Source: an uncultured Gammaproteobacteria bacterium
GTDB lineage: Bacteria; Patescibacteriota; Patescibacteriia; Magasanikbacterales; GWA2-37-8
Assembly: GCA_964439885.1 (NCBI GenBank)
Contig: CAYTPE010000001.1
Span: forward strand, 9,031 to 73,030
Direction: 5' to 3'
Length of the DNA stretch: 64,000 nt
A program made the translations under genes and the position numbers. Under the pieces are notes generated by a model. That model was not told where the DNA came from. It saw nothing but the letters and a program-made list of their open reading frames with translations, and ran no database searches. Below are positions 32,291 through 63,844 of the stretch, piece by piece (the stretch's first letter is position 1; the number at the start of each line of letters is the position of its first letter).

Positions 32291-33808
32291 ATGGACGGGA
32301 AAGAGGTATTTGAACTTATAGCCACAATCGCCAAACATAATAAAACTCCAACATATATCGTCGGTGGTTTTGTGCGTGACGCGCTGCTCGGTCGCGGGCA
32401 AAAAAAGGACATTGATTTTGTGGTGGTTGGTTCCGGCATTGCATTCGCAAAAAAATTTGATGAGGCAATGAAGCAGTCAGGCTCGCTTATTGAGTTTCCC
32501 GATTTTGATACGGCGCGGTATGTCATAAATCCCCGCTTGGGCGGGGAGCCGTCCGCCTTGGCGGCGGACGGGGGGTGGGTTGGTGAGAGCAACGAAACAC
32601 TTGTTTTGGAATTCGCGGGAGCGCGTACCGAAAAGTATGACGAGAAATCACGCAAACCAAAAGTGGAGGCAGCTAGTTTGGAAAAAGATTTGGAGAGACG
32701 AGATTTTACTGTGAATGCAATGGCAATAGATGTAACGAAATACGAAAGGTACGAAAATACGAAAGAGATAAGTGATATAGCGATTGATCCATTCAACGGT
32801 CGGCAAGACCTTGAAGATAAAATTTTGCGCACGCCGCTCGATCCGGATGTTACATTTAGTGACGATCCGCTACGTATGCTTCGCGCAGTGAGGTTCGCGG
32901 CTCAGCTTAATTTCAGTATCGAACCAAAAACACTCGAAGCCGTTCATCGAAATCGTGAGCGAATGAAAATCATTTCCGGTGAGCGAGTGCAAGAAGAACT
33001 TATTAAACTGATGGCGACTCCCGTGCCATCAATCGGACTGCAACTTATGTGGACCACAGGGCTCATGGATGTGGTACTCCCCGAAGTGTCGGCCCTGGAC
33101 GGTGTGGAAGAAATTTTTGGTCACCAACACAAAAACAATCTCGTACATAGTATCAAAGTAGTCGACAACATCGCCGAGTGGTCCACGAACCCGTGGCTAC
33201 GCCTCGCCGGGCTTCTCCACGACATTGGCAAACCCGGTACCAAGCAATTCCTCCCCAAAATTGGGTGGAGCTTTCACGCGCACGAGCACCTCGGTAAAAA
33301 ATTGTTTTATAACGTCGCGCGCCGCCTCAAACTCTCCAAAGAAAAAACCGATTATATCGCTAAGCTTATCCGCTGGCATCTACAGCCAATCGCGCTCATG
33401 GACGAAGGTATTACCGACTCGGCAGTGCGCCGGCTCATTGTCACAATGGGGGAGGAACTGGAGGATCTGCTCATCCTCGGTAAAGGTGACATTACTACGG
33501 GCAACCCGTATAAAAAAGAAAAAAGATTAAAGAATTACGATCGTTTGCGTTCAACGATTGATGACTTGATTGAGCGAGATAAACTCCGCGCCTTCCAGTC
33601 TCCGGTGCGCGGTGATGAGATAATGCAGCTGTGTGGGCTTAAACCTGGGCCAACGGTGGGTAAAATAAAAGAAGCCATTGAAGAAGCTATTCTCGACGGT
33701 AAAATTCCGAACGAGTATGACGCGGCGAAACAGTATTTCGAAGAGATTAAAGACGAGTATCTGAAAGAAGCAGCGCGATGGGAAAGAGAGGAAAATGGTA
33801 CGGAGTAA
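32291..33808 (+). CDS. cca: CCA-adding tRNA nucleotidyltransferase (head domain + HD domain)
   Basis: PTYIVGGFVRDALLGRGQKKDIDFVV nucleotidyltransferase signature, RDFTVNAMA, and the HD motif LLHDIGKP. Carries an approximately 40-aa insertion in the head domain. Confidence 0.8.
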   Translation: MDGKEVFELIATIAKHNKTPTYIVGGFVRDALLGRGQKKDIDFVVVGSGIAFAKKFDEAMKQSGSLIEFPDFDTARYVINPRLGGEPSALAADGGWVGESNETLVLEFAGARTEKYDEKSRKPKVEAASLEKDLERRDFTVNAMAIDVTKYERYENTKEISDIAIDPFNGRQDLEDKILRTPLDPDVTFSDDPLRMLRAVRFAAQLNFSIEPKTLEAVHRNRERMKIISGERVQEELIKLMATPVPSIGLQLMWTTGLMDVVLPEVSALDGVEEIFGHQHKNNLVHSIKVVDNIAEWSTNPWLRLAGLLHDIGKPGTKQFLPKIGWSFHAHEHLGKKLFYNVARRLKLSKEKTDYIAKLIRWHLQPIALMDEGITDSAVRRLIVTMGEELEDLLILGKGDITTGNPYKKEKRLKNYDRLRSTIDDLIERDKLRAFQSPVRGDEIMQLCGLKPGPTVGKIKEAIEEAILDGKIPNEYDAAKQYFEEIKDEYLKEAARWEREENGTE

Positions 33809-33900
33809 GCAGTGAATCGTTTACTCCTTATTCTTTACTCTTTACTCTTTTGAAAAAGCATGGTATGATAAGTATGAAATTACATATTTAACTTTTTTCT

Positions 33901-38094: not shown

Positions 38095-39327
38095 ATGAAT
38101 TTCACCCCCATACAACTCGCTTACGGCTCACTGGTTCGTCAAAAGAAACGAGCGATTTTAACGATGCTCGCGATTGCTATTGGTATTGCAGCTGTTATCA
38201 CTATTAGCGCGGCAGGAGCAGGGCTTCGAAGGCTGGTGCTGGGGCAGATCGATATTTTTGGCGCAAGTACGTTTCATATAGAAACCCGTGTGCCAAGCTC
38301 AAAAAGCTCTGGCGGGTTTGGTTCAGTTGGTATTACTATTACCACTCTCAAAGAAAAAGATGTGATTGATATGCTGAAACTCCCGAATGTGGAGGCGGCC
38401 GAAGGTGAAGTATCGGGCCAGGAAATCGTGAGCTATAACGGACAGATTAGCAAATCATTACTTTCTGGTGCCGGCTACTCATCACCTGAAGTGCAGGTGC
38501 TTGAATTTCAAGAAGGACGTTTCTATACCAAAGACGAAGAAGATTCGCTCGCACAGGTAGCAGTGCTCGGACCCAAAACCAAACAAAAATTATTTGGTGA
38601 TGATACGGCCGAAGGCAAAACTATCTACATCAAAGGCAAACCGTTCCGCGTGATTGGCGTTCTGAAGCCGCGTGGCGCAGCATTCTTTTTTGACCTCGAC
38701 AATATGGTGATGCTCCCCACTAAAACCATGCAAAAACGATTGCTCGGGATAGATTACTATGTGAGTATTTCCGGTAAATTTAAAGACGTAAACCAGTCCG
38801 AAAGTACCGCGAAGGATATTGCCTATATCTTGCGTGAAAATCACAATATAGCCGACGAGGCTCATGATGACTTTGTGGTGCAAACGACGGTGCAGGCGCA
38901 GTCGTCACTCAGTGCGATCACGAGCGGTATTACTCTATTACTTATCGCACTCGTCTGCATCTCGCTTATTGTAGGTGGAGTTGGCATTATGAATATCATG
39001 TATGTATCGGTAGCCGAACGCACCTTCGAAATCGGTTTGCGCAAGTCGCTTGGAGCCAAAGGACGCGATATTTTGGGTCAATTTTTGGCGGAGGCAGTGC
39101 TTGTGACGCTCGGCGGGGGAGTGGTGGGAGTCGTGCTCGGCGCGCTTTTGGCTTTGCTTATTTATCTTGGTGCCACTGCAGCCGGATTTAAATGGGTGTT
39201 CAGCATTTCTCTTTCATCTATCATTTTGTCAGTTTGCTTTTCCGGTTTTATTGGCTTACTCTTTGGCTTGTACCCAGCCAAAAAGGCCGCGGCACTCAAT
39301 CCAATCGAAGCACTAAGGAAGGAATAA
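38095..39327 (+). CDS. ABC transporter permease (MacB/FtsX-like), second copy
   Basis: 410 aa, same architecture (VSVAERTFEIGLRKSLGAKGRDI). Confidence 0.8.
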   Translation: MNFTPIQLAYGSLVRQKKRAILTMLAIAIGIAAVITISAAGAGLRRLVLGQIDIFGASTFHIETRVPSSKSSGGFGSVGITITTLKEKDVIDMLKLPNVEAAEGEVSGQEIVSYNGQISKSLLSGAGYSSPEVQVLEFQEGRFYTKDEEDSLAQVAVLGPKTKQKLFGDDTAEGKTIYIKGKPFRVIGVLKPRGAAFFFDLDNMVMLPTKTMQKRLLGIDYYVSISGKFKDVNQSESTAKDIAYILRENHNIADEAHDDFVVQTTVQAQSSLSAITSGITLLLIALVCISLIVGGVGIMNIMYVSVAERTFEIGLRKSLGAKGRDILGQFLAEAVLVTLGGGVVGVVLGALLALLIYLGATAAGFKWVFSISLSSIILSVCFSGFIGLLFGLYPAKKAAALNPIEALRKE

Positions 39328-39379
39328 TGTTGAGTGAAGGCTGGTGAATTGCCGTTGGGTACAAAAAATATTTTAAAAA

Positions 39380-39410
39380 AAATAAAACCTTGGACAAAGG
39401 TTTTTTTGTT
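39380..39410. terminator. bidirectional terminator hairpin flanked by an A-run and a T-run
   Basis: AAAAAAATAAAACCTTGGACAAAGGTTTTTTT. It terminates the + strand permease operon and the - strand tRNA(UCA)-containing transcript. Confidence 0.5.
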
Positions 39411-39411
39411 G

Positions 39412-39687
39412 TGTAGTAGCTGGCCTGCCTCGGCTGCTACAGCTTGCTCCATCACCACCGGAGGGTAAGGTGAGAGCACATGCTGTGCAGCCGAGGCGAG
39501 GTCACTTGGCCCTACGCACGTACGTGCGTAGGTAAAGAGAGCCGCGGGCACCCGCTCGTCGCCGCCATGCCTTGTTCGTTCACCGGGGGGCCGGAGTTTT
39601 CCGAACAGAGACACACACGCGGTCACGACTAGCGGGGCCCGAGGCCCGACTGTGCCAACCACGATGAAGCTGTGGCTGGCGTTTGGA
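39412..39687 (-). ncRNA. GC-rich highly structured RNA of unknown class, co-transcribed downstream of tRNA(UCA)
   Basis: About 276 nt at about 65% GC in an AT-rich context, with no plausible ORF. Contains several perfect or near-perfect helices, including the 22-nt palindrome CCTACGCACGTACGTGCGTAGG, GCCTCGGCTGC...GCAGCCGAGGC (11 bp, long-range), GGGCCtcgGGCCC and CCGGccccCCGG. Bounded by the tRNA on one side and a terminator on the other. Confidence 0.25.
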
Positions 39688-39757
39688 TGGGGCCAGGAGG
39701 ATTCGAACCTCCGCATTCCGGTTTGAAGCCGGACGCTCACCTCTGAGCCATAGCCCC
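39688..39757 (-). tRNA. tRNA-like gene with anticodon UCA (UGA-decoding; resembles Trp-type anticodon arm)
   Basis: Hand-folded 70-nt cloverleaf: acceptor GGGGCUA/UGGCCCC, D-arm GCUC-AGAGGU-GAGC (short loop), anticodon stem UCCGG/CCGGA with loop CUUCAAA (U33, U34-C35-A36, A37), 4-nt variable loop, T-arm GGAGG-UUCGAAU-CCUCC, discriminator A. No encoded CCA. Confidence 0.5.
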
Positions 39758-39898
39758 ATACACCAGCACCGCCGAAGCGGTGCCGTCCTCTCTCACGCAC
39801 ATGCATGCGTGAGAAAAAAGCGACCCCCAAACCCGGGATCCGTCCACGGGAGGGAACCCGCGACAAACCACGCGAGATCTGGGGGTCAGTTGGGCACA

Positions 39899-39927
39899 AG
39901 TAAACCAGTTTTGGTGTGTTTTGTCAA
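39899..39927 (-). promoter_or_regulatory. putative sigma70-type promoter (TTGACA-17-TTTACT) driving the tRNA(UCA)-structured RNA unit
   Basis: The reverse complement of 39899-39927 reads TTGACAaaacacaccaaaactggTTTACT, about 130 nt upstream of the tRNA 5' end. Confidence 0.3.
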
Positions 39928-40199
39928 TAGCTAAAGAAAAATGAATGTCGATAAAGTGGCTAAATTAAACAGAATTTCACAATTATAGTGAAAAAAGTAA
40001 AACAAAAAATCCCCACTCAAATAGTAAGGATTTTTATCTTGATGAAGCCTTTTTCCAAAAGGAAATGCCTCGGCTACTCGTTAAATCTATACGCATCGGT
40101 AGAGACCTAACGAGTCGGTAGCCGGGGCGAGGCTTCCGTCTCGCTCCGTTGTGGCGGGGTGGGGGCGGCACGGAGGAGCCGCCAGCGGGGGGCTCCTCT

Positions 40200-40376
40200 T
40201 CAGCTCTTGTAGAGGTAGAACACGACGGCGCCCGCTCCGAAGAGCAGGCAGAGCCACGAGAAGTGGCTCATGAGTCGGGGGAAGAAGCGGAAGTTGTCCC
40301 GATCGATCCACCAGAGGATCCTCACCCAAACTCCCACTGCGAAGAGCAGTATTCCAAGCACTCGCCACGTTTCCAT
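40200..40376 (-). CDS. small (58 aa) two-helix membrane protein with atypical GC3-rich codon usage
   Basis: METWRVLGILLFAVGVWVRILWWIDRDNFRFFPRLMSHFSWLCLLFGAGAVVFYLYKS. A perfect GGAGGAGG ribosome-binding site lies 5-6 nt upstream of the ATG, which is unusual for this genome. Stop codon TGA; GC-rich hairpins downstream. Confidence 0.4.
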   Translation of the reverse strand: METWRVLGILLFAVGVWVRILWWIDRDNFRFFPRLMSHFSWLCLLFGAGAVVFYLYKS

Positions 40377-40695
40377 CTTGACCTCCTCCGGGTCACCACG
40401 ACCCGTGTCTACCGCAATAGTATATACGCATAATACACTACTACGATCGACACCGGTCAGAAAGATTACATTATTAAAGCGCACTTTATTTAAATAAAAC
40501 ATACTCTAGGGCAGGCTTAATGTCAATAATGACGAAACATTATACGGAATATTCAAGGTGAGAATTTTTTTATACTCCGCAGTTACTTTTTTGGTTTAAT
40601 TAGCGTATATAGTAGCGTGCTATTGGCAGGGTTATGAGTGTGCTTCTGTAAAGCATATTTATAACCCGGCCGATGTCGCTGGGGGGAGGAAGAAG

Positions 40696-40965
40696 ATGGC
40701 CAATCGTCGTGCAAACGTGGTGCCGGGAGCTCCGGCGCCGGTTACTCCAGACCGTACCGCCGGGGCCGATGCCCCGACGCGGTACATGCCTCAGATCGAT
40801 GGCAGCAGTGCGGCCGACAAGCGGCATCGGCCGCTCGCTGACGGGCTGGCAGAGAGCCGGCTCGTCCAGATCGTCTGCCTGCGCCGCTACCTCTGGGTGG
40901 CGGGCGGAATCGCGGCCCTGGAGGCCGCTCTGCTGGCCGCGCTGGCGGCTAAGTTCCTCCTCTAG
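40696..40965 (+). CDS. small (89 aa) protein with Pro/Ala-rich N-terminus and a C-terminal transmembrane helix; GC3-rich codon usage
   Basis: GGGGGAGGaagaagATG ribosome-binding site. C-terminal RLVQIVCLRRYLWVAGGIAALEAALLAALAAKFLL. Followed by a strong 11-bp GC hairpin (GGGGTCTCGCC...GGCGAGACCCC). Confidence 0.4.
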   Translation: MANRRANVVPGAPAPVTPDRTAGADAPTRYMPQIDGSSAADKRHRPLADGLAESRLVQIVCLRRYLWVAGGIAALEAALLAALAAKFLL

Positions 40966-41086
40966 GAGGCTGACCCCGCGGGGTCTCGCCCGTGAGCGCT
41001 TTCGAGCGACCGGCGAGACCCCCGGGTCTCACTACTCCACGTATTGCTTTTTAAGCCGTGGGGTGATAAGGTTTGAGTGTTGTGTG

Positions 41087-41199
41087 AAAAGAATAAAGAG
41101 TAAAGAATAAAGAATAATAAACGAAACCACCACTCTTTACCTGCCTGCGTAGGCAGGCTCTTTACTCTTTACTCTTTACTCTTTACTCTTTACTCTTTC
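41087..41199. repeat. inverted heptamer tandem arrays (TAAAGAR x3 ... CTCTTTA x6) flanking a central GC hairpin, immediately upstream of dnaG
   Basis: aaaGAATAAAGAGTAAAGAATAAAGAAtaa ... GCCTGCgtagGCAGGC ... CTCTTTACTCTTTACTCTTTACTCTTTACTCTTTACTCTTTC. Confidence 0.6.
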
Positions 41200-41205
41200 T
41201 CATCC

Positions 41206-43041
41206 GTGGCCACCGATACACAGGCGATAAAGGATCGCATCGACATCGTACAACTCATCGGCGAATACATAACACTCAAAAAAGCGGGCGCGAACTGGAA
41301 AGCCAACTGCCCGTTCCATCACGAAAAATCGCCGTCATTTATGGTGCATGCCGATAAGCAAATCTGGCATTGTTTTGGTTGTGGGAAAGGCGGCGATATT
41401 TTTAGCTTTGTGCAAGAAATGGAAGGGCTTGATTTTGTGGAAGCGCTGAAACTCCTGGCCAAGCGTGCCGGTGTACCAATAGAAACATTCAAAAGCGAAA
41501 CCGACACGAGCGCGCGCAACCGGGTGCTGGAAGTGAACACGAAAGCGGCGGAATTTTTTCACCGCGTTCTCATGGAGTTGCCCGCATCTCAAAGCGCGCG
41601 CGAATATCTGGAGCGCCGCGGATTGAAAAGAGAAACTATTATAGAATGGCAAATTGGATTTATTCCCGACCAGTGGGATTTGCTCACTCGATATTTTCTC
41701 AAAAAAGGTTTTGGTATCAACGACTTGGTAGCCGCGGGACTGGTGATTAAACGTGAAGGAGTCACTTCGACTACCACCCCTACCCCTCCTTCGCAAGGAG
41801 GGGAGATTACGAGTGAATCCATACGTGGGTATTACGACCGTTTTCGTGGACGTGTAATGTTTCCTATTGCCGACACGCATGGCAATGTGGTGGGTTTTAC
41901 CGGCCGTGTACTGGTCGAAACCGAGAATTCGGGGGGTAAATACGTCAATACTCCGCAAACCGCCGTCTACGATAAATCACGTGTGCTGTATGGGCTTTCT
42001 CGAGCGAAAACTGAAATAAAAAACCAGGATCAGGTTGTACTAGTAGAAGGTCAGATGGATGTGATAGCCTGCCACCAGGCGGGCATGAAGAACGTCGTAG
42101 CCGCATCGGGCACCGCGCTGACAACAGAGCAGATTAAACTGATTAAACGATATACGACCAATATTGCCATGGCGTTCGACGCCGACAGCGCCGGAGAGAA
42201 TGCCGGCAAACGTGGTATTACCACAGCGATATCCGAAGCAATGAACGTGCGCGTGATTCGTATTCCACCCGGCTTTGCCAAAGACGCTGACGAGTGCATC
42301 AAAAAAGATCCGACGGTATGGTTTACGGCGGTGAAAGAAGCAGCTGATGTGATGGAGTGGTATCTGGCGATTGTACTCTCACGCTATGATATTCGTGAAC
42401 CCAAAGCGAAACGCGTCGCCGCGACTATTCTGCTCGAACAAATCCGCTCTATTCCCAACGCCGTGGAACGCGATGAATGGATTAAACGAGTAAGCGGCGA
42501 ACTCGGTATCGAATTACCCATTTTACGCGAAGAACTCAAAAAAATTAAAACGTTGCCGTCACCAAAAAACAATGAGCCCGTGAGTAAAGTGGTAGAGCGA
42601 GTAGAAGCACTCACACCGTACGAATTGTTGCTGCAGGAATTTTGGTCATTACTTTTGAAATTCCCGGAATTGTATTCGACATACGCGAGTTCGCTGTCGC
42701 CAGACTATTTCGCAGGCACACCTTTTAGTGCTCTTTACCAAAACGCTGTGGGTGTGTATACTAAAGCTCAAGCACTGGATATGGAAGCGCTTCGACAACT
42801 CTATGCGACCGAAGCGCAAAATCCGATTGATATATTGGTGCTCCGACCCTACCGCAATGTAGAGGATTTGTCGCTGCCGACCGCTAAAGCCGAACTCACT
42901 GAATTGTGGAAGCGCATCGCCGAGCAGTGGAACAAAGAACGACGCAAGGCACTGGAGAGAGAAATGGCGATGGCCGAAAAAAGTGGGGAGAAACAGAAGA
43001 TGCTTGAGCTGCTCCAAGAACTACAAAATTTGAACGTTTAA
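41206..43041 (+). CDS. dnaG: DNA primase
   Basis: 611 aa. CHC2 zinc finger CPFHHEKSPSFMVHADKQIWHCFGCGKGGD, TOPRIM EGQMDVIACHQAG...AFDADSAG. Carries a Thr/Pro-rich insertion (TSTTTPTPPSQGGE) before the RNA-polymerase domain core. Confidence 0.9.
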   Translation: MATDTQAIKDRIDIVQLIGEYITLKKAGANWKANCPFHHEKSPSFMVHADKQIWHCFGCGKGGDIFSFVQEMEGLDFVEALKLLAKRAGVPIETFKSETDTSARNRVLEVNTKAAEFFHRVLMELPASQSAREYLERRGLKRETIIEWQIGFIPDQWDLLTRYFLKKGFGINDLVAAGLVIKREGVTSTTTPTPPSQGGEITSESIRGYYDRFRGRVMFPIADTHGNVVGFTGRVLVETENSGGKYVNTPQTAVYDKSRVLYGLSRAKTEIKNQDQVVLVEGQMDVIACHQAGMKNVVAASGTALTTEQIKLIKRYTTNIAMAFDADSAGENAGKRGITTAISEAMNVRVIRIPPGFAKDADECIKKDPTVWFTAVKEAADVMEWYLAIVLSRYDIREPKAKRVAATILLEQIRSIPNAVERDEWIKRVSGELGIELPILREELKKIKTLPSPKNNEPVSKVVERVEALTPYELLLQEFWSLLLKFPELYSTYASSLSPDYFAGTPFSALYQNAVGVYTKAQALDMEALRQLYATEAQNPIDILVLRPYRNVEDLSLPTAKAELTELWKRIAEQWNKERRKALEREMAMAEKSGEKQKMLELLQELQNLNV

Positions 43042-46257: not shown

Positions 46258-49200
46258 ATGCATTTGGGAAGTGCTCGTACAATAGCTGCACAATTAGGCC
46301 GCATTACCGGCTATTTTTTGCTTTTTGTACTTGCTTTAGGGGGCCTTTTTGTTGATCCGTTTGTATCGACAGCTGCCACTGGTGTACCTAAAATTTTCAC
46401 CTATCAGGGTCGTTTGCTTGATGGGGCGGGGAATTTGCTTGGTGGCAATGGTACCAACTATTGTTTCCGTTTCTCGCTGTACGACAACGCCACCGTCGGG
46501 CAGGGCGCAAAGGTATGGCCGGCAGGAGTTCCGTCTACCATGACGCTACAAGTTAAGAGCGGTGTTTTCAACGGCGCAATCGGCGATCTTGCTGCGGGAG
46601 GGGATTTGCTTGATTATAATTTTCAGGATTCCGATGAGGTGTACTTGAACGTAGAAGTAGCAGCCCAGGTGGGTGGCTCATGCGCGGGTGTGGCATTCGA
46701 AACACTGGCTCCACGTCAGCGTGTGACTGCTAGCGGTTATGCCATCAACGCGAACACAGATGGCGGATTTACCACATCGCAGATTGCAACAGGCAGCCAG
46801 ATTCCCGTGCACACCAATGGTGCTATCGTGCTTGGTGGTGCCACTGCCGGGCTCAGTGCTACCAACGCAAACCCGCTTCTTTTGCAGGGGAGTGGTAGTG
46901 GTGACATTCAATTTTTTTCTGCACTGAATAAACTTTCTTCTGCCGGTAATTTAACATTGGCCGGATCACTCACTGCCAACGGCGCACTTCTCATCAACAA
47001 TGACGCGACTATTACTGGCACAACGACGTTGGCAACAACGAGTATTTCCAAAGCAACAATTGCGAATGCTACGGTGAATAATTTAACTGTAACGGGGGTG
47101 TGTTTTGGTTGTGGTGGGGGGGGGGCGGCAGGTGGGGTGAACACATCAACGGCAGGATACATGGCGTATTATCTGAATGGCACAAGCGTAACGGGCACAA
47201 GCATGGTGACCTTTGCTGGTAACACATTTACGGTTTCAGGTTTGTCTGTATTTACTGCTACCGCAACTTTTGCCACAACAAGCATTACGAACGCCGCTAT
47301 TGGCTCTGCTTCAGTAGGAAATTTGGTAGCTACAAACAGTACATCGACAAATAGCTTTGCTGAGGGGCTTGCTTATACCAATTTGTCTGGTGTCAATGCT
47401 ACTTCGACAAATTTGTTTGCGTCACAATTTAATTTTGTGAATGCAAATGGAACGAGTCTGACTTCTACGAATGCATTTTTTTCTAATTTAGCTGTAGGTA
47501 ATTTCAGTCCGACGAATTTGTCGACTTCTAACATTACCACTACCAATTTTGTCGCGACGGGCGCGGTGAGTCTGCCAGTTAACTCGGTGACCGACGCGAT
47601 GGTTTCGAACTCTTTGACTATTGACAACACGGGAAATATTTCCGCTACCGCTATCAATTCGGGAACACTTGGTAACAATGCTGTCACGTTGGCTCTCGGA
47701 TCTTTTGGCTCGATCACTGGAGCGCTTGGAGATGCCAACGTAGCGGACAATCTTACCATCAACGGTGGCACTATTAACAACACAACGATTGGCGCGTCGA
47801 GCCCCTCCACGGGTGTGTTTACGAACGCGACAGCTACCAATTTTGTTGCCTCGAATGTTACCACTACTAATTTGGCAGTGACGGGAGCACTAAGTGTGAC
47901 CTCACTCAACCCCACGAATTTGGCTTGGGTAAACGCCACGGGAACGAACAGTATTCTGAACAATGTAACAAGTACGAATTTGTCCGTCTCTGGCTTAACC
48001 ACTCTCGCCAACACCACCTTGACCAACGCCACCTCCACCAACTTCAACACCGTTGGCCTCACCTTCACCAACGCCACGGGCACCAACAGTGTCTTCACGA
48101 ACGCTACCAGTACCAACCTCTTTAGCACTGGCCTTGCCTTCACCAACTTAAACGGTACGAATGCCACCTCCACCAACTTCTTTGCCACCAACCTCGCGAG
48201 CCTTGGCCTGACCAGCACCTACGGCAACCTCTCCTTTATCACCGCCACCGGTGTCACCTCCACCAACGCGAGCTTTACGAACCTCAGTGCTGCCACCTTC
48301 AACCCCACCAATCTCACCTGGACCAACGCCACGGGGACCAACAGCGTCCTGACCAATGTGACCAGCACCAACCTCGCCGTCAGTGGCCTGGTTGCCTTAA
48401 CAGGGAACACCACCTTGACCAACGCCACCTCCACCAACCTCTTCTCAACCGGCCTCGCCTTCACCAACCTCTCTGGTACCAACGGAACAAGTACCAATTT
48501 CTTTGCCACGAACCTCGCGAGCCTTGGCATTACGTCCACGTATGGCACCATTACCTTCTTAACAACCAGCGGCATCACCTCAACCAACGCGAGCTTGACC
48601 AACGTTACCTCCACCAACCTGTCCGTCTCTGGCTTAACCACTCTCGCCAACACCACCTTGACCAACGCCACCTCCACCAACTTCAACACCGTTGGCCTCA
48701 CCTTCACCAACGCCACGGGCACCAACAGTGTCTTCACGAACGCTACCAGTACCAACCTCTTTAGCACTGGCCTTGCCTTCACCAACTTAAACGGTACGAA
48801 TGCCACCTCCACCAACTTCTTTGCCACCAACCTCGCGAGCCTTGGCCTGACCAGCACCTACGGCAACCTCTCCTTTATCACCGCCACCGGTGTCACCTCC
48901 ACCAACGCGAGCTTTACGAACCTCAGTGCTGCCACCTTCAACCCCACCAATCTCACCTGGACCAACGCCACGGGGACCAACAGCGTCCTGACCAATGTGA
49001 CCAGCACCAACCTCGCCGTCAGTGGCCTGGTTGCCTTAACAGGGAACACCACCTTGACCAACGCCACCTCCACCAACCTCTTCTCAACCGGTTTGGCATT
49101 TACTAATCTCAATGGTACCAATGGAACCAGCACCAACTTCTTTGCCACCAACCTCAGCAGTCTTGGCAGTACTTCCACCTACGGTAACATCTCCTTCATC

Positions 49201-52200
49201 ACGGCTAGTGGCATCACATCGACTAATGGTAATTTCACTAATTTAACAGCTTCGAACTTCATTCCAACCAATCTCACCTGGGTGAGTGCCACCGGTACCA
49301 ACACCGTTCTAACCAACGCCACATCAACCAACTTAAATACGGTTGGGTTAACCTTTACGAATGCCACGGGGACCAACGCTGTCTTGACCAACGCCACGTC
49401 AACCAACCTCTTCTCAACAGGTCTGGCATTTACTAACTTGAACGGCACGAACGCAACGAGCACCAACTTTTTTGCCACCAACCTAAGTAGTCTCGGGCTC
49501 ACCACTACGTATGAGAAAAGTACATTCCTTGTAGCGACAAATGCTACTTCAACTAATTCTTTTGTCACTAATCTATCAAGTCTAGGCATAACATCCACAT
49601 ACGCAAATCTTGGTTTCTTGGTAGGTACTAATATTACTTCAACAAATCAATACAGCAACGGTCTCACCTTTAATATCGCCACAGGTACCTCTATCACTAC
49701 TACAAATGCATATATCGCAAGTTTGGTCGTCGGCACATGTACGGGTTGTGGTGGCGGTGCGGCAAGCGGTGGTGTAAATACTTCGACAGCTGGAAATTTT
49801 GCTTATTATCAGGGTGCCAGCTCAGTCACCGGTACATCTGCCCTTACCTTGTCTGGTACGAATATTACTGCGAATGGCGCAGTAGCCTTAACTGCTACTA
49901 CCACCGCCACCAATCGTTTTATTAACACCATATCAAGCGGCTCAAATATATCAGTGGTCGGCAGCGTTGCTCTTGCCAACTCAGGTTCTAAACCATACAA
50001 CCTAGTACTTCGAGGACGGTATGCCTATGTAACAAATTTCGCTAGTTCTACCATATCTGTGGTTGATTTAAGCAATCCGGCAGCACCAACTGTAATTAAT
50101 ACAATTAGCGTTGGAATTAACGTCGGGCCAACAGGCATCGATAATGATAGTAGATATTTGTATGTTGCCGCGTCGTCTACGCCAAGCCTTTATATTTACG
50201 ATCTTTCAACTGCAGCAGCCCCGTCTCAAGTTGGTCAGTCGCTTTTGTCTTTTTCACCAACAGATATAGGAGTAGATGGTCATTTTGTCCTACTTCCGTC
50301 TCCGAGCTTTGGTCAGGTCCAAATTCGTGATATTAAATATCCAAATAATGTATCATCTGTTCCTGGCTTGGGTGGTGTTACTGGTGGAACCCGCATTACT
50401 ATCTTTGGTAAATATGCCTACTACTCGGGCTCTTCCAATCTGTATATTGCTGACGCCTCCAACCCTGCCTCAATGGTTGTTAATGGTAGTATTGCTATGC
50501 CTAATCAGGTTAATGGCGTGTATGTTGTAGACCGATACGCGTACGTATTAAATGGAGGCTCGTTAAACGTAGTTGATATTAGTACGCCCAGCGCTCCAGT
50601 AAATGTTGCGACCACTTCAATCGGCGGCACTCTCTGGGGAGTGGCTGGTACTGGCCGCTATCTCTACATTACAGATAAAGCCAACAGCTCCGTTGATGTC
50701 GTAGACGTGGCAAGCTCTACCAACCCAGTCTTAGTAAAAACCATTACAGGCTTTGCTTCACCGCAAGGCATCGCCGTTAACGGAAGATACGCCTACGTTG
50801 TAGATAATGGTGATGGTACTCTCTATGTAATTGATTTACAGGGAACGGAAGTGAGCTCTCTGGTGGCATATTCTGCCGATGTCGGTTCACAACAAATTAG
50901 AAATGATCTCTACATTGGCAACAAAGCTTTTGTGCTTGGAGGGTTGACTGTTGGTAGTTTGGGCATCGCGTCAGCCGGAGATCTTGTGGTCCAAGGCACC
51001 GGCAATTCTACACTAGCCGGCGCTTTGGTTGTTTCGTCATCCATTTCAGCAAGTGCTTTTTCTGTGTCTGATAATTCATTTTATACAAGTGTAGGAACAA
51101 CCTATATAACAAATCTAAACGCTACTAGCATTACCTCCACCAACCTCTTTTCTACCGGTCTCACCTTTACTAACGCTACAGGTACCAAGGCCATTTTCAC
51201 GAGCGCCACCTCGACGAATTTGTATACAACAAACGGCGTGTTTACTAATGCCACTACTACCAACCTGTATTCAAACGGGTTGGTCTTCTCACGCGCCACA
51301 AGTACGGCATTAACTTCCACCATCGCATACATCGGCAGCCTGACAGTCGGCAGCTGTTCAGGTTGTGGCGGCGGAGTCTCTTTGAGCGGCAATAATACAT
51401 GGAGCGGGCTAAATATATTTACCAATACTACCACATTAGCCACCACCACCATTTCAGGTATATTTGATGGTGATGCTAAATTCGTCCCAGCTAGCCCGAA
51501 TGGGAATGGTTTCCAAGTAATGAATTTAGAAAACGATGAGACGCTTTTCAGCGTCGGCCCTTCAGCAGGGAATGCTGATTTTGTGGCGATAGGGGATAGA
51601 AGTGCCGCGCTTACGACCACTACACTCTTATATGTTGATACCAAATCTGATGCTGGCGACCCCACGCCTCCACTGAGTGCGGACGGTGCTATCTATTATA
51701 ATTCGAATAGCAAAAAATTCCGGTGTTACGAAAATTCGTCATGGAAAAATTGTGATAGCGCTGCTAATGCTCAAACATTTACCGCCACAAGTACCTGGAA
51801 CAAGCCAAACGGTGTTACATATGTTACCGTGCGTTGTATTGGCGGTGGCGGTGGCGGTGGCGGCGGAAGTTCGAAGGCGGCTGGTGGTGCACGAGCTGGG
51901 GGCAGTGGCGGTGGCGGTGGCTCTGTGCTCATCAGAACATTTTTAGCTTCTGACGTAACATCTAGTATTGGTATTACTGTTGGCCAGCCAGGTGGGGCTG
52001 GCGCCGGCGGCGTAAACGGAGCCAACGGCACCAGCGGCAGCGCTGGTACTGCATCCAGTTTTGGCACGTATGTCACCTGTTATGGTGGTGGCGGCGGTTT
52101 TGGGGGCACAACTGCAGTGAATTCAGGTGGTACAGGTGGTGGTCACGGTGGTGCTGGTAATAGTGGCAGTGGTTCAGCTTCCACTGGCGGCTTGCCGGCT

Positions 52201-52704
52201 ACTGCCAGCAACGCAGTTGGTTTGTCGGGACAGGGTTCTGGTAGCAGCGCGGGTACGGCTTCTGGCCAACCATCCGAATGGGGTGGTGCTGCTGGTGGCG
52301 GATCTTCAATCACAGTAGCTAGTCAAAATGGCGGTACCTCGCTCTGGGGTTGTGGTGGCGGTGGCGCAGGTGGAAATATTACTACTGGTAACGTGGCCAA
52401 TGCACCAGGCGCTGGTGGTAACACCGGTGTTTGGGTTACGGCTGGCGGCGGCGGTGGAGCGGCTGGTTCAAGCGGTGCGGCTGGTACTAACGGCACCGAC
52501 GGAACGGGAGGAACCTCCTTGTTGTGCGGTAAAGGCGGCGGCGGTGGTGGATCTTCCACAAACGGTGCTAACAATGGCGGTACCGGTGGTAACGGTGGCG
52601 CTCCTGGCGGCGGCGGTGGTGGTGGTGGAGCCGGTACTACTACTGTTAATGGAGGTACTGGTGGCAGAGGAGGGGCAGGTGAGGTCGATGTATGGGCCTG
52701 GTAA
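46258..52704 (+). CDS. giant (2148 aa) secreted/cell-surface repeat protein: signal-anchor, Thr/Asn/Ser-rich ~106-aa tandem repeats, YVTN-type beta-propeller repeats, Gly-rich C-terminal domain
   Basis: N-terminal hydrophobic segment [15 protein letters not shown]. Low-complexity repeats of the form [46 protein letters not shown].... [29 protein letters not shown]... repeats (YVTN/LVIVD-like) follow. The final ~300 aa are about 45% Gly ([18 protein letters not shown]...[25 protein letters not shown]). Confidence 0.8.
47981..49258 (+). repeat. near-identical 639-bp (213-aa) tandem duplication inside the giant gene, itself composed of ~106-aa sub-repeats
   Basis: TGTCCGTCTCTGGCTTAACCACTCTCGCCAACACCACC... 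occurs at 47981 and again at 48620. Hundreds of following nucleotides are identical between the copies. Confidence 0.8.
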
Positions 52705-60570: not shown

Positions 60571-63249
60571 ATGTCAGAAAAAATGCCCATTATAGTAGAT
60601 GGTTCAAGAGGGGTAGAAGAGAAAGCTGGGCTGTCGGAGCCTCAGGGCGGCTCGGATCAACGAGAAATAATTCAACCAGAAACTCCAGAATCCATTCCCG
60701 AACTGACACCAAAACAGTCACGCTTTTTTAATTTTTTACGTCAGCACCGCCTAGGTGTGGCGCTTGGTTTGTCGTTTTCGCTGCATGGCGGATACATGGA
60801 ACGAGACAAAGTTGTTGCGTTTGCCGATGATACTGTGGAGGTGAGTAAAGAAGCTCTCAGCGCGCTTGGCAGTCTTCCAAAAAAGGCTTGGCACGAAATG
60901 GCAAATTGGTACCATCGTAACAGAATTGATACCACACAAGCCGAAGCGTTTAGCCGCAAAGCCGGCGAGATTATGGAACGCTCTGAGCGTGGTGAGCGGC
61001 AGCAGCTTGATTGGGCAAATCTTATGCCAGATATAGAATTTTTTTCCGGTGGCATTAGTGTAGAAGAGCACGAACATGAAAAAGCATATATTGCTGCAGA
61101 ATATGCTCGTATCGACGCGCTACCGCGTTTGCCCGACGAATTGGCCGATATGAACTCAGTGTTAGCCCTGCAGCCGCCAAGTGGCGAGGGCACATCGATG
61201 CTCGCGCGCGCAGATAAGCAGCCAGTATGGTGTGAGGGTTTGGCCAAGTGGGTGCTCGTTATGTTTCGCCATCGTTATCCCGAAAAAGAAATACACATGC
61301 AGCAGCTTTTAGTGGAAGGCAAGAACAAGAAAGCCGAACCGCATTTGCGCGCATTCATGAAAGTAGGAGACAAAACATACGCCTTGGACGGAAGCGAAGC
61401 ATATGAGTTGACTCAAAACGATTTTGAGGGTTCAGTAGTGACGACGCCTGAGGAATTGTATCTCGCGCCATTGGTTCCACATCCACGTTCGCAGGTAGTA
61501 GACAAACACGAAGACTTTCTCGCTGCCGAGCGATCCAAAGCTGCACTCAAATCAAAAGCAGAAGATGTTGCGTTGGCTGAACCGCCACCACGAGAGGTTA
61601 CCATGCGTAGCCGTTTGCAAATGGCGTCAGCAAGCAGCGATACTTCAATAGATCAGCGAGATATTGTTTTCCGTCTCAAAAGAGTGCATCGCGACAAACG
61701 GGAACCGCTCGAAGATCCCACCGCCGCACAGGATAAAAAATTACGCAAAGCTTTTGAAGACGACAAGAGCTTTAGGTTCTACCGAGCCTTGAGTAGCGGA
61801 GGACACGTACAAAATACCAAAGATGATTTTTCGTGGCGCGTATCGGGCGAGCCAGGCGAGCTGGTTGTTTCGCACCTGCCCTATCAAGAATTGATGGAGA
61901 GAATTAAAGATCCTGAGGGGTATGGGTGGAGAGAGAGGGTCTTTGAACTTAATCCCAATGTGCTCGTGGTAGGTAAAATTCCTGATTGGTATTCTCTTCG
62001 TAGAGAAGGTTTGGCTGTTGTTGAAGTCAGACCTTCAACTCTGGGAGCAAAAGAAATCGAATTGGTAGACAGAGTGGGTGATGTGGTGCTAGCAGGACAA
62101 AACAGCTGTCGGTTCGATAATGAATCGGCTGGTGTGTGGGAGTGTAGTGCAAAAGAACCAAGGTCTGTCGGTGAAGAAGTGGAGAAAACAGTTGTGTGGT
62201 ATGACATGAACGGTATGCTCCAAAAAAAAATGCTCGCCAAAGAAGGCCGATACGTTAGTGGGGGCTATATAAGTTTAGCCAAAAACGAAGCTGGAATCAA
62301 AAAAGTCTCGCTCAGTCGTTTGGATGAAAATGAACCATTCGCTTCATTTCTGGGTGAGCGGGCATTCATCAACTCTTTAACTGGTCTTGTATCAACCGAT
62401 GAACGCCGGCCGAATGGAGACATTAAACGTCTTTATACTGTGGACGGAAAATTATTGGATGATACACTAATGGGGGACATTACACCTAATGAGCCCTATA
62501 CGATTTGCCCTCGAAAAGGTAGTAGGGGTGGATATATTCTGAATAAAGAACACCAACGCATTTTTGAGGCACCCTCAGGCTTCATTGGTGAAGATGTCCA
62601 AAATGATGGTCCGTTTGTTTTTTTTACGTGGTCTTTAGGCAGTAATGCACATAAAAAGTTTTATTTTATCCGCGTTGATGGAAGCGTTAGCCAAGCCTAC
62701 GATCATGTTCGCTTTGAAGGTGCACTCGGAGTTGTAATGATCGGCCGTAAAAAATATTTTATAGATGATCATGAAAACAAGCTTTCAGATGGGTATGAAT
62801 ATGCGAACGTGTTGCCGGGTGGTATACGAGTGGCGCGGTTGAACGGTAAGCAGGTAATTCTCGACACTTATTTTCAACCTATTTCGGATGGTTATAAAAA
62901 TATAAGCTATGCTGGTTTTGGCCACATCTGCATTGCCGATGAAGAAGTAGAAAGCGGTAGGACAAAAAAATACTTACTTGACGGCAAAACCGGTAAACGC
63001 ATTACTCAAAAACCCTATAGAAAAATATCTAATTTTGTATATGGAAGAGCCATAGCTCGAGATTTTGAAGGTGGGTATAACTACCTCCTTGACGATAAAG
63101 GAAATGAAATACGCCAGGAAGTGTATAACATAATTTATGGCAGAGATGGTGATGTGGCCAGTGATGCGGCTGAAGCAGTGTGGTGGCTTATGGATGCCGA
63201 AGGAAAGTTCGCGTATTATATAGATAAAAATGGTAAAAAAATTTTTTAG
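60571..63249 (+). CDS. large hypothetical protein with C-terminal WG-repeat-like (KxYxIDxxGKxI) beta-repeats
   Basis: 892 aa. The C-terminal third contains repeated units such as KKYFIDDHENKL, KKYLLDGKTGKRI, YNYLLDDKGNEI and KFAYYIDKNGKKIF. Confidence 0.55.
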   Translation: MSEKMPIIVDGSRGVEEKAGLSEPQGGSDQREIIQPETPESIPELTPKQSRFFNFLRQHRLGVALGLSFSLHGGYMERDKVVAFADDTVEVSKEALSALGSLPKKAWHEMANWYHRNRIDTTQAEAFSRKAGEIMERSERGERQQLDWANLMPDIEFFSGGISVEEHEHEKAYIAAEYARIDALPRLPDELADMNSVLALQPPSGEGTSMLARADKQPVWCEGLAKWVLVMFRHRYPEKEIHMQQLLVEGKNKKAEPHLRAFMKVGDKTYALDGSEAYELTQNDFEGSVVTTPEELYLAPLVPHPRSQVVDKHEDFLAAERSKAALKSKAEDVALAEPPPREVTMRSRLQMASASSDTSIDQRDIVFRLKRVHRDKREPLEDPTAAQDKKLRKAFEDDKSFRFYRALSSGGHVQNTKDDFSWRVSGEPGELVVSHLPYQELMERIKDPEGYGWRERVFELNPNVLVVGKIPDWYSLRREGLAVVEVRPSTLGAKEIELVDRVGDVVLAGQNSCRFDNESAGVWECSAKEPRSVGEEVEKTVVWYDMNGMLQKKMLAKEGRYVSGGYISLAKNEAGIKKVSLSRLDENEPFASFLGERAFINSLTGLVSTDERRPNGDIKRLYTVDGKLLDDTLMGDITPNEPYTICPRKGSRGGYILNKEHQRIFEAPSGFIGEDVQNDGPFVFFTWSLGSNAHKKFYFIRVDGSVSQAYDHVRFEGALGVVMIGRKKYFIDDHENKLSDGYEYANVLPGGIRVARLNGKQVILDTYFQPISDGYKNISYAGFGHICIADEEVESGRTKKYLLDGKTGKRITQKPYRKISNFVYGRAIARDFEGGYNYLLDDKGNEIRQEVYNIIYGRDGDVASDAAEAVWWLMDAEGKFAYYIDKNGKKIF

Positions 63250-63265
63250 AATAACCAGAAATAGT

Positions 63266-63844
63266 ATGCTCAACAAAAAATACTTCCAACAAGTTCGTAC
63301 CGATTTGCTCTCATACGCCGAGAAGCGCCGCGATGTTATCAAATCCGCCGGAGACGCCCAGCACCACGCCAAGCGCGCTATTTTCGCTCTGCAACGCGAT
63401 AGCACCGCCGATGCCGACGAGTCTCTCACGGCGGCCAAAGAGCTGCTCGCCGGTTTGGTCAAAAAGTACAAGAATGATAGCCGCATTATTGAAGAAGGAT
63501 CTTATCGAGCCGCGCTCGAGGAATTTATCGAAGCTACTTTGTTTCAGCAGTTTCTCGCCAAAAAAGATTTAGGAGAAATTAAAGGGTTGCCCATCGATTC
63601 CGATGCCTTTATCGCTGGGTTGGCCGATGTGCCGGGAGAAATTGTACGCTACGCTACTAAATCGGCCACCGAACGTAATTTCAATATGGTGCAATACTGC
63701 TATCAAGTCGCCGAAGCAATTATTGGGGAGTTGCTCGATATGGACTTAACTGGGTATAATAGACAGAAGTTCGACCAAGCCAAACAGGCGTTGCATAAAT
63801 TGCAGCAAATCGTCTACGAGGTGAGCCTTAAAAATAACTTGTAA
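63266..63844 (+). CDS. translin-family protein
   Basis: Start taken at ATG 63266. AKRAIFALQRD...YRAALEEFIEATLFQQFL...AFIAGLADVPGEIVRYATKSA matches translin/TRAX helical-bundle conserved blocks. Confidence 0.5.
   Translation: MLNKKYFQQVRTDLLSYAEKRRDVIKSAGDAQHHAKRAIFALQRDSTADADESLTAAKELLAGLVKKYKNDSRIIEEGSYRAALEEFIEATLFQQFLAKKDLGEIKGLPIDSDAFIAGLADVPGEIVRYATKSATERNFNMVQYCYQVAEAIIGELLDMDLTGYNRQKFDQAKQALHKLQQIVYEVSLKNNL

Follow-up and report, generated by a model that had tools for sequence, protein, structure and literature searches.

A tRNA gene with the anticodon UCA upstream of dnaG

The DNA analyzed here, referred to as the window, is a stretch of 64,000 nucleotides (nt) of contig CAYTPE010000001.1 (assembly GCA_964439885.1, positions 9,031 to 73,030, forward strand). 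The closest GTDB representative DnaG was 60% identical to that of the window and belonged to Candidatus Magasanikbacteria (candidate phyla radiation, CPR/Patescibacteria). It was found that the window carries, on its minus strand, a tRNA gene with the anticodon UCA, which pairs with the stop codon UGA. This UCA tRNA gene lies in a 1.9-kb gap between the gene of a MacB-type permease, MacB2 (38095–39327), and dnaG (41206–43041). The gap is made up of three blocks of 58–70% GC, with spacers of 30–34% GC, in a genome of 47% GC.

The first-pass annotation, made from the sequence without database searches, had folded the minus strand at 39757→39688 into a complete cloverleaf with a UCA anticodon, and both programs used here agreed with it. 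The Rfam model RF00005 matched 39757→39688 over model positions 1–71 with 69.5 bits (E = 4.3e-13, gathering score 29). RF00005 was the best-scoring tRNA-clan family at this position, and the score was the highest of any tRNA within the window. ARAGORN called a tRNA with the anticodon tca at 39684–39758(–). The cloverleaf was also present in the minimum-energy fold of the surrounding 531-nt transcript. These results confirmed that the UCA-anticodon tRNA gene is real, far beyond chance.

The sequence of the UCA tRNA (GGGGCUAUGGCUCAGAGGUGAGCGUCCGGCUUCAAACCGGAAUGCGGAGGUUCGAAUCCUCCUGGCCCCA) contains the same four arms that had been assigned by hand. The 7-bp acceptor stem (GGGGCUA/UGGCCCC) includes U6·G67 as the sole G·U pair, and all other stem pairs are perfect. 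It is followed by a D arm with a 4-bp stem (GCUC-AGAGGU-GAGC), an anticodon arm with a 5-bp stem and a 7-nt loop (UCCGG-CUUCAAA-CCGGA), and a T arm with a 5-bp stem (GGAGG-UUCGAAU-CCUCC). Positions 34–36 were assigned as UCA by ARAGORN as well as by Rfam, with U33 and the purine A37 in place. Inspection of the sequence indicated that U8, A14, G15–C48, G18 G19, G26·A44, U33, A37, G53–C61 and the T-loop are canonical; the single oddity of the tertiary set is a 6-nt D loop with U in place of A21. Because there is no stem mismatch, the tertiary positions are intact and the score is the top one, the UCA tRNA does not look like a decaying pseudogene. Odd tRNAs at the same slot in relatives reached just 47.7–55.6 bits, compared with 69.5 bits here.

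The variable loop has 4 nt (AUGC), and the discriminator A73 is not followed by an encoded CCA. The three other Rfam-supported tRNAs of the window (Pro GGG, Pro CGG and Lys UUU) likewise have A73 and no encoded CCA, so that a CCA-adding enzyme is needed for maturation of all of them; the gene of such an enzyme is present in the window (Table 1). In an alternative ARAGORN drawing, the acceptor stem is extended to 8 bp by U-1:A73, and the 3' end would then be U + CCA. The canonical 7-bp register was preferred over this one. The ARAGORN label 'SeC' resulted from the anticodon UCA together with the optional eighth pair U-1:A73. tRNA-Sec was ruled out, because the variable loop of 4 nt and the D stem of 4 bp are not the long variable arm and the 6-bp D stem of that class, which is further marked by an 8/5 geometry of acceptor and T stem. 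Another ARAGORN call in the gap, 'tRNA-Pro(tgg)' at 40887–40975(+), was regarded as a false positive; it had no Rfam support, folded poorly and lies inside an open reading frame (ORF), ORF C.

Genetic code and stop codon usage of the host

Stop codons were counted over the 50 long ORFs of the window, which cover 92% of its length. TAA ends 36 of them, TAG 8 and TGA 6, giving a TGA share of 10–12%. Two of the TGA stops are in ATGA stop/start overlaps, and readthrough of the TGA-ended genes would extend them by just 5–48 codons. As the first-pass annotation had stated, TGA terminates genes in this host; it was confirmed that UGA is a genuine stop and that the standard code 11 is used.

For comparison, loci of relatives (given L-numbers) were fetched via dnaG or MacB2 homologues, and 83 of them were scanned for tRNAs. 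The stop usage in 80 of these loci (L001–L080) was TAA 67%, TAG 23% and TGA 10%. TGA is thus the rarest stop across Magasanikbacteria (∼10%, compared with 23% for TAG), and its share drops to 6% in the lowest-GC members. This order, TGA below TAG, is the reverse of the usual bacterial one, in which TGA is commoner than TAG. Because TGA is the rarest stop clade-wide, its rarity is a property of the lineage and not a response to the UCA tRNA. A lineage with code 11 and ∼9% UGA stops (Tapirivita, Eggerthellaceae) has been termed 'primed' for UGA reassignment (PMC13462651).

The tRNA gene is embedded in a chain of hairpins

The UCA tRNA gene is part of block A (39400–39890), which is non-coding. 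The minus-strand RNA of block A was predicted to fold with −282 kcal/mol (z = −12.2) into, in this order, the hairpins H1, H2 and H3, the tRNA cloverleaf, the hairpins H5, H6, H7 and H8, and an AT-rich terminator (Table 1). The minus strand was more stable than the plus strand by 24 kcal/mol. Both flanks of the tRNA contributed to the fold: the 5' flank had z = −7.1 and its minus-strand fold was more stable than the plus-strand one by ∼20 kcal/mol, and the 3' flank had z = −8.8 on the minus strand. Outside the tRNA, 18 G·U pairs were counted. The G·U pairs and the advantage of the minus-strand fold indicate that the structure is formed at the RNA level, on the strand of the tRNA itself.

A candidate sigma-70-like promoter precedes H1, and H1 is directly followed by a U6 tract (39814–39819), so that the two resemble an intrinsic terminator or a leader module. 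No further promoter-like site was detected between H1 and the tRNA in the promoter scan. At the other end, an AT-rich hairpin with flanking T/A runs is located between the MacB2 stop and block A; it is likely a bidirectional terminator, predicted to serve both MacB2 (+) and the tRNA transcript (–). No other RNA family was found across the gap in Rfam at E ≤ 10.

It was also observed that H7 (39511–39532) and H2 (39786–39819) are related perfect palindromes with the core ACGCAYGYAYGUGCGU, ∼280 nt apart and on either side of the tRNA. Apart from these two copies, the core was not found in the window or in 84 relatives' loci.

Table 1. Positions of the tRNA gene, of the other elements in the MacB2–dnaG gap and of the CCA-adding enzyme gene
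Feature	Position	Strand	Evidence and remarks
CCA-adding enzyme (tRNA nucleotidyltransferase)	32291..33808	plus	Pfam PolyA_pol, PolyA_pol_RNAbd, HD, tRNA_NucTran2_2
AT-rich hairpin, likely bidirectional terminator	39384..39404		repeat search and fold
H8, 35 bp	39506-39418	minus	fold
H7, core ACGCACGUACGUGCGU	39532-39511	minus	fold
H6, 42 bp	39647-39539	minus	fold
H5	39680-39654	minus	fold
tRNA gene, anticodon UCA	39688..39757	minus	Rfam RF00005 full length; ARAGORN tca; cloverleaf kept in transcript minimum-energy fold
H3, 9 bp, UUCG loop	39785-39764	minus	fold
H2, 15 bp, palindromic core ACGCAUGCAUGUGCGU	39819-39786	minus	fold
H1 leader hairpin, 68 nt, 29 pairs (7 G·U)	39821..39888	minus	fold and terminator scan
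Candidate sigma-70-like promoter TTGACA-N17-TTTACT	39899..39927	minus	read from sequence; putative function
ORF B, 58 amino acids, two predicted transmembrane helices, stop TGA	40200..40376	minus	Shine-Dalgarno GGAGGAGG; GC content at third codon positions (GC3) 0.80
ORF C, 89 amino acids, C-terminal transmembrane helix	40696..40965	plus	Shine-Dalgarno GGGAGGAAG; GC3 0.78
Hairpin of AT-rich (AAAGAGT/CTCTTTA)n repeats, adjoining dnaG on its upstream side	41088..41198		outside GC-rich blocks

The MacB2–dnaG gap in relatives

The gene order HlyD-ABC-MacB1-MacB2-DnaG-RpoD-MurG is conserved across the clade, and the gap between MacB2 and dnaG varies from 28 nt to 3.9 kb. The closest relatives, L136, L141, L142 and L143, were found through MacB2 homologues. 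L141 (MacB2 68% identity) has an empty site of 56 nt. In L136 (MacB2 70% identity), a promoter and an H1 hairpin with a U-tract were found that are homologous to those of the window, with a local alignment score of 95 compared with 34 ± 5.5 for shuffled sequences. The conservation at the promoter comprised TTGAC and the stretch up to the start CAACTG. Between the H1 copies of the window and L136, 6 of the 24 pairs showed compensatory changes and none was broken. A covariance model of H1 (R1) scored 98 and 102 bits on these two copies, and no match beyond them was found in ∼1 Mb of relatives' loci. The H1 homologue in L136 is also followed by a chain of hairpins (z = −9.1). No tRNA was detected in the L136 gap; RF00005 gave no match even at E ≤ 10, which ruled out a tRNA remnant there.

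In the other two close relatives, tRNAs were found in the gap. L143 (MacB2 67% identity) contains a tRNA-Arg(ACG) whose leader is a long hairpin with a U-rich tract (fold z = −4.4). L142 (MacB2 68% identity) contains a tRNA-Pro(UGG) and a second tRNA, both within long hairpins (z = −7.2). This second tRNA, at 6672–6747(–) of L142, has a 9-nt anticodon loop (ACCUCCAGU) and scored 47.7 bits. L142 (6317–6523) and L143 (1726–1931, both on the minus strand) share an orthologous 3' hairpin with a terminator, GCUCCCGGCACA...UGCCGGGGGC (z = 13.8), and this common hairpin lies beside different tRNA bodies, those of Pro UGG and Arg ACG, respectively. This arrangement suggests a cassette-like replacement of tRNAs inside a conserved hairpin scaffold.

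In more distant relatives, which have another gene upstream, odd minus-strand tRNAs were found directly upstream of dnaG in L029 and L026, and the tRNA in L039 was Cys GCA. L029 has two tRNAs with aberrant anticodon loops at 914–985(–) and 993–1067(–), with 53 and 56 bits, respectively. L026 has a tRNA with the anticodon AAC (A34) at 5302–5375(–), and at ∼5400–5560(–) a tRNA-like gene with a structured insert of ∼95 nt in place of the anticodon arm. These non-canonical tRNAs of the slot could be frameshift-suppressor-like, intron-containing or decaying copies.

Fillings of a similar kind, with GC3-rich small ORFs, long, perfect GC-rich hairpins and AT-rich promoter spacers, were observed in the gaps of the independent metagenome-assembled genomes (MAGs) L001, L004, L005, L071, L136 and L138. 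The filled spans are 39328–41205 in the window, 3440–6000 in L001, 1888–2281 in L004, 4190–4749 in L005, 2120–6000 in L071, 7237–8342 in L136 and 7252–8484 in L138. The gap ORFs have a GC3 of 0.7–0.8 in genomes of 41–50% GC; they often encode membrane proteins, and HD-domain and SPFH proteins were also seen. For the locally high GC3, repeated import, local mutational bias and selection for RNA structure are the options. The fillings of different genomes have no sequence similarity to each other. Among comparable GC-rich, hairpin-rich fillings at the gap or at the slot upstream of dnaG, four from independent MAGs contain minus-strand tRNAs.

Because like fillings occur in independent MAGs and the promoter and leader are homologous to those of L136, a chimeric assembly appears unlikely. 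Since many related MAGs have the gap filled in this style, the composition is characteristic of the locus and does not indicate recent import. Judged from this comparison, the gap is a native, fast-changing slot for minus-strand tRNAs, organized in hairpin chains, and it is occupied here by the UCA tRNA.

The same data bear on the idea that the cloverleaf is a processing or stability module: RNase P and RNase Z would cut at the tRNA and thereby set free, or divide up, the hairpin RNAs on its two sides, and the anticodon would not matter. Such a role would suit the highly structured flanks on the tRNA strand, with their z scores and 18 G·U pairs given above, and the compensatory changes in H1; moreover, the hairpin chain of L136 exists without a tRNA, so that a separate function of the hairpin RNAs is conceivable. 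However, mere processing would not call for a flawless anticodon arm, U33, A37 and the full tertiary set. In relatives, canonical decoding tRNAs (Pro UGG, Arg ACG) are found in the same scaffold, and hairpins other than H1 are without sequence conservation. This explanation is thus considered improbable.

Amino acid identity of the UCA tRNA

Bacterial tRNA-Gly is recognized by U73, G1–C72, C2–G71 and G3–C70, and tRNA-Cys by U73. The UCA tRNA has A73 and G2–C71, in contrast to U73 and C2–G71, so that neither a bacterial Gly nor a Cys identity was accepted. The comparison of identity elements called for in the first-pass annotation turned out negative for tRNA-Gly under these bacterial rules as well as for tRNA-Sec, the latter on account of the short variable loop. 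A 4-nt variable loop is found in some bacterial tRNA-Gly.

Among the class-I tRNAs that are one mutation away from UCA (Trp, Gly, Arg and Cys), only tRNA-Arg commonly has A73 in bacteria. The Arg identity elements of E. coli are C35, A/G73 and A20; A20 is the major determinant, and C35 is the main one within the anticodon. C35 and A73 are present in the UCA tRNA; A20 is absent and replaced by U20, as in the tRNA-Arg(ACG) of L143. E. coli tRNA-Arg has the same T arm, and the 5' strand of the anticodon stem, GUCCG, is shared with L143 tRNA-Arg(ACG) in addition to U20. Over the full length, the identity to the latter was 51/70, which is a generic value, and the acceptor stems are unrelated. Under bacterial identity rules, an Arg-type parent, from which UCA would arise from UCG by one mutation (G36A), fits best to A73 and C35.

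A resemblance of the anticodon arm to tRNA-Trp had been pointed out in the first-pass annotation; it was not upheld for the rest of the molecule. Bacterial tRNA-Trp has the discriminator G73 (PMC5370408), and a classical bacterial tRNA-Trp was ruled out by A73. The tRNA, with A73 next to G1–C72 and a 4-nt variable loop, was also unlike the Trp-like bodies of phage UCA tRNAs, and the sole exact match of its anticodon arm was organellar. The archaeal/eukaryal Trp set consists of A73 with G1–C72, and a few CPR bacteria carry an adjacent archaeal-type tryptophanyl-tRNA synthetase (TrpRS) gene in an operon with the tRNA (PMC5370408). One phage tRNA-Trp(UCA) that carries A73 is charged by a TrpRS of its own (bioRxiv 10.1101/2025.10.30.685624). 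The combination of A73 and G1–C72 in the UCA tRNA is that of the archaeal/eukaryal-type Trp set, and it also fits an archaeal-type or some phage-type Trp tRNA by sequence. No TrpRS gene adjoins the UCA tRNA; its flanks are the MacB permease gene, orphan ORFs and dnaG. Taken together, charging as an Arg-type tRNA, charging as a Trp-type tRNA and no charging at all are possible.

A further possibility is that one anticodon base is an error of assembly or sequencing, or a minor allele of the population, and that the true tRNA is an ordinary one a single substitution away, e.g., Arg UCG, Gly UCC or Trp CCA. In relatives the slot is indeed taken by ordinary tRNAs (with the anticodons ACG for Arg and UGG for Pro), an Arg-type tRNA could have A73 and this T arm, and with one MAG for the species no second copy confirms the base. 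On the other hand, a consensus error at one given base of a 70-nt gene is rare, A36-A37-A38 in CUUCAAA is typical of tRNAs for codons starting with U, and the discriminator would be wrong for Gly or Trp. An error of this kind is therefore regarded as unlikely by a wide measure.

Small ORFs, repeats and the origin of the gap sequence

Besides the tRNA, the gap contains two small ORFs (Table 1). ORF B is flanked by a promoter-like site (40526–40498) and a terminator-like site (40035–40005). Readthrough past its TGA would add 30 codons, through downstream hairpins, to a TAG; the extension showed no sign of meaning. The GC3 values of ORF B and ORF C (0.80 and 0.78) compare with a host mean of 0.495 ± 0.047. 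In a word-indexed search of 5.8 billion clusters, ORF B matched only the contig of the window itself and no homologue was found for ORF C, for which an exhaustive HMMER search gave only a spurious low-complexity match. PADLOC had no match for ORF B or ORF C, and Pfam had none for the ORF B region or ORF C. At the corresponding position of L136 there is a GC3-rich ORF with a C-terminal transmembrane helix, without sequence similarity to ORF C.

Hairpins of 7-nt repeats, (AAAGAGT)n/(CTCTTTA)n, such as the one just upstream of dnaG, were also found between genes at 33820–33850 of the window and in L050, L057, L060 and L068. They look like a native, clade-typical intergenic repeat or terminator element. 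The three GC-rich blocks were unrelated to each other and to L001–L081, so that they are not copies of one mobile element. An integron attC nature of the hairpins after the ORFs was discarded, because the motifs GTTRRRY and RYYYAAC are in the wrong order.

The first-pass annotation had listed, among other explanations, acquisition of the tRNA from a phage or from a code-4/25 lineage. In this scenario, a suppressor tRNA gene would have entered on a GC-rich island that was inserted in one piece. The 58–70% GC of the blocks in a genome of 47% GC and the GC3 of the two orphan ORFs, far above the host mean, would fit such an import. An 18-nt imperfect direct repeat (15/18) brackets the GC-rich blocks, and 2 of 300 shuffles matched as well; given the homology to L136, it is weak evidence for import. 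It is also known that some phage tRNA(UCA) genes have A73 (bioRxiv 10.1101/2025.10.30.685624).

Several results spoke against an import. Homology to L136 shows that the promoter and H1 were inherited vertically, which made a fresh import of the blocks as high-GC DNA less likely. Many related MAGs have the gap filled in this GC3-rich, hairpin-rich manner too. The tRNA has host features (A73, CCA not encoded). A 'code-change' module would consist of a suppressor tRNA beside phage genes, a cognate aminoacyl-tRNA synthetase or release factor 1 (RF1) (PMC10746230; bioRxiv 10.1101/2025.10.30.685624). A Pfam scan of 30 proteins of the window detected no release factor, aminoacyl-tRNA synthetase, phage, integrase or mobile-element protein, there was no match in IMG/VR, INPHARED or PLSDB, and a module of this type was rejected. 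The 17 phage tRNA(UCA) genes that were recovered comprised Trp-like bodies (G73, CCA encoded) and A73 bodies, and the best of them was only 80% identical to the window tRNA. A phage or code-4/25 origin is accordingly judged to be very improbable.

Two other ORFs of the window deserve mention. The ORF at 63230–63844(+) matched the Translin family (Pfam PF01997, E = 8e-16). Translin-family proteins bind nucleic acids, are best known in eukaryotes and archaea, and are unusual in bacteria. An ORF of 2148 amino acids with skewed composition is located at 46258–52704(+); the GC skew is −0.45 at 48–49 kb, and the GC content is 67% at 51.8–52.7 kb. It is probably a repetitive surface protein.

Possible function of the UCA tRNA

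The reading that we favor, with a probability of about one half, is that the window contains a UGA-pairing tRNA gene that is probably functional, that arose in a native, hairpin-scaffolded slot with fast turnover, and that is tolerated because UGA stops are rare. As UGA is the rarest stop, ending ∼10% of genes clade-wide, the host should tolerate a UGA reader. The UCA tRNA is hence a candidate natural stop-codon suppressor. Transcription starting at TTGACA-N17-TTTACT, or running on from ORF B, would pass the H1 + U6 leader and yield a hairpin-rich RNA of ∼490 nt. The tRNA would be cut out of this RNA by RNase P and RNase Z, and the CCA-adding enzyme encoded 6 kb away would complete its 3' end. 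The mature tRNA would pair with UGA, and possibly also with UGG by U34 wobble, and could cause some UGA readthrough in competition with release factor 2 (RF2). Regulated UGA readthrough and a non-decoding tRNA-like role, both listed in the first-pass annotation, are possible as well.

Several observations weigh against this reading. The −10 element of the candidate promoter (TTTACT) is weak; it lacks A2 and was hence not listed by the consensus scan. The terminator-like H1 + U6 stands between this sole candidate promoter and the tRNA. As no identity set is matched completely, the UCA tRNA may be uncharged, and if it were charged with a non-Trp amino acid, the U34 wobble onto UGG would make this harmful or costly. 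No gene of the window or the gap was found to need UGA decoding; with genes ending at TGA and none in need of a UGA reader, the earlier statement that the host tolerates such a tRNA and does not require it still stands. The host species was seen in one assembly only. Homologues of the UCA tRNA were likewise absent from every collection searched: none was present in the relatives' dnaG or MacB2 loci scanned for tRNAs. IMG/VR gave 0 matches for the exact full length, for each half and for degenerate patterns of the anticodon arm plus T-loop. The sole match in a scan of one JGI metagenome was a partial organellar tRNA(UCA) of the code-4 type, which has the same anticodon arm and is not a relative. 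BLAST searches of phage, plasmid and E. coli records (including INPHARED and PLSDB) with the whole island and with the tRNA gave no relative, the tRNA matches being generic ones of 70–80% to tRNA-Tyr, Asn, Gln(supE) and Arg, without isotype information. Because no homologue was detectable, conservation and covariation of the UCA tRNA cannot be shown.

Part of these observations would equally be expected if the UCA tRNA were a silent or near-neutral by-product of slot turnover, i.e. a recently duplicated or recombined tRNA whose anticodon mutated to UCA, which is poorly expressed, owing to its place behind the terminator-like H1, or uncharged and which will decay as the aberrant tRNAs of relatives do. 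The slot repeatedly holds non-canonical tRNAs (L142, L029 and L026), the UCA tRNA is without homologue and missing from L136 and L141, it is preceded by a weak promoter and by a leader resembling a terminator, it matches no complete identity set, and no window gene needs it. Nonetheless, the UCA tRNA is pristine (69.5 bits, no stem mismatch), unlike the degraded occupants elsewhere. Furthermore, an analogous leader hairpin and U-rich tract precede the canonical Arg(ACG) in L143, so that the leader alone does not imply silence. We therefore hold such a by-product to be possible, yet on the whole unlikely. If the UCA tRNA is indeed silent or uncharged, the finding shrinks to an unusual tRNA by-product.

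The favored reading, that of a probably functional UGA-pairing tRNA, is of interest for models of codon reassignment. The codon capture and ambiguous intermediate models predict a UGA-reading tRNA beside UGA stops, and such genomes are seldom observed. A tRNA(UCA) on the chromosome, outside any phage, in a CPR lineage that uses code 11, already has UGA as its rarest stop and belongs to the phylum in which code 25 is found, would make this stage of coexistence testable. In addition, close relatives differ in what they carry upstream of dnaG, be it a canonical tRNA, one with an aberrant loop or the UCA tRNA. This suggests an unusually fast turnover of tRNA genes, which bears on the origin of new decoding specificities. 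It is conceivable, as a long shot, that the genome represents an 'ambiguous intermediate' stage in the reassignment of UGA, in a class of Patescibacteria not known as recoded. UGA stops are already scarce throughout the clade, and a functional, charged tRNA(UCA) would have come from a hotspot of tRNA innovation, where close relatives exchange tRNA bodies, some with altered anticodon loops, on a hairpin scaffold. The slot would then be an undescribed mechanism by which new tRNA specificities are generated and tried out.

Comparison with known systems

Natural opal suppressors include the tRNA-Trp(UCA) carried by code-4 bacteria and by recoded phages that infect standard-code hosts (Borges et al., 10.1101/2021.08.26.457843; bioRxiv 10.1101/2025.10.30.685624; PMC10746230). 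With these, the UCA tRNA shares the class-I cloverleaf, the CUUCAAA loop and a setting in which UGA is otherwise a stop. It shares A73 with HF2, a phage tRNA-Trp(UCA) that has been characterized by experiment. In contrast to the tRNAs of recoded phages, it is chromosomal and located in a native slot, without phage context and with no TrpRS or RF1 gene nearby. The phage Trp-like UCA tRNAs that were recovered have A1–U72 or G1–C72, G73 and an encoded CCA, whereas the window tRNA has a different body with a 4-nt variable loop. The anticodon UCA is also that of tRNA-Sec (selC), and an 8-bp acceptor can be drawn by ARAGORN in the window tRNA, which lacks the long variable arm.

The tRNA-Gly(UCA) of code-25 Patescibacteria, found in Gracilibacteria and Absconditabacteria and in their phage RSA-ATP1 (bioRxiv 10.1101/2024.03.08.584096), has the same anticodon and comes from the same phylum-level group. 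The host of the window, by contrast, belongs to another class and uses code 11, and its tRNA differs by A73 and G2–C71 from the general bacterial Gly rules, which stood in for the code-25 sequences in this comparison. With tRNA-Arg (UCG/ACG) and with laboratory opal suppressors derived from tRNA-Arg, the UCA tRNA has A73 and C35 in common, and its T arm is that of E. coli tRNA-Arg; it differs from tRNA-Arg in the absence of A20 and in a variable loop of 4 nt rather than 5, and the tRNA-Arg of L143 has G73. A parallel in stop usage is Tapirivita, which also has UGA as its rarest stop, a small genome and a probably host-dependent lifestyle. Compared with Tapirivita, the genome of the window already has a UCA tRNA while UGA still terminates genes.

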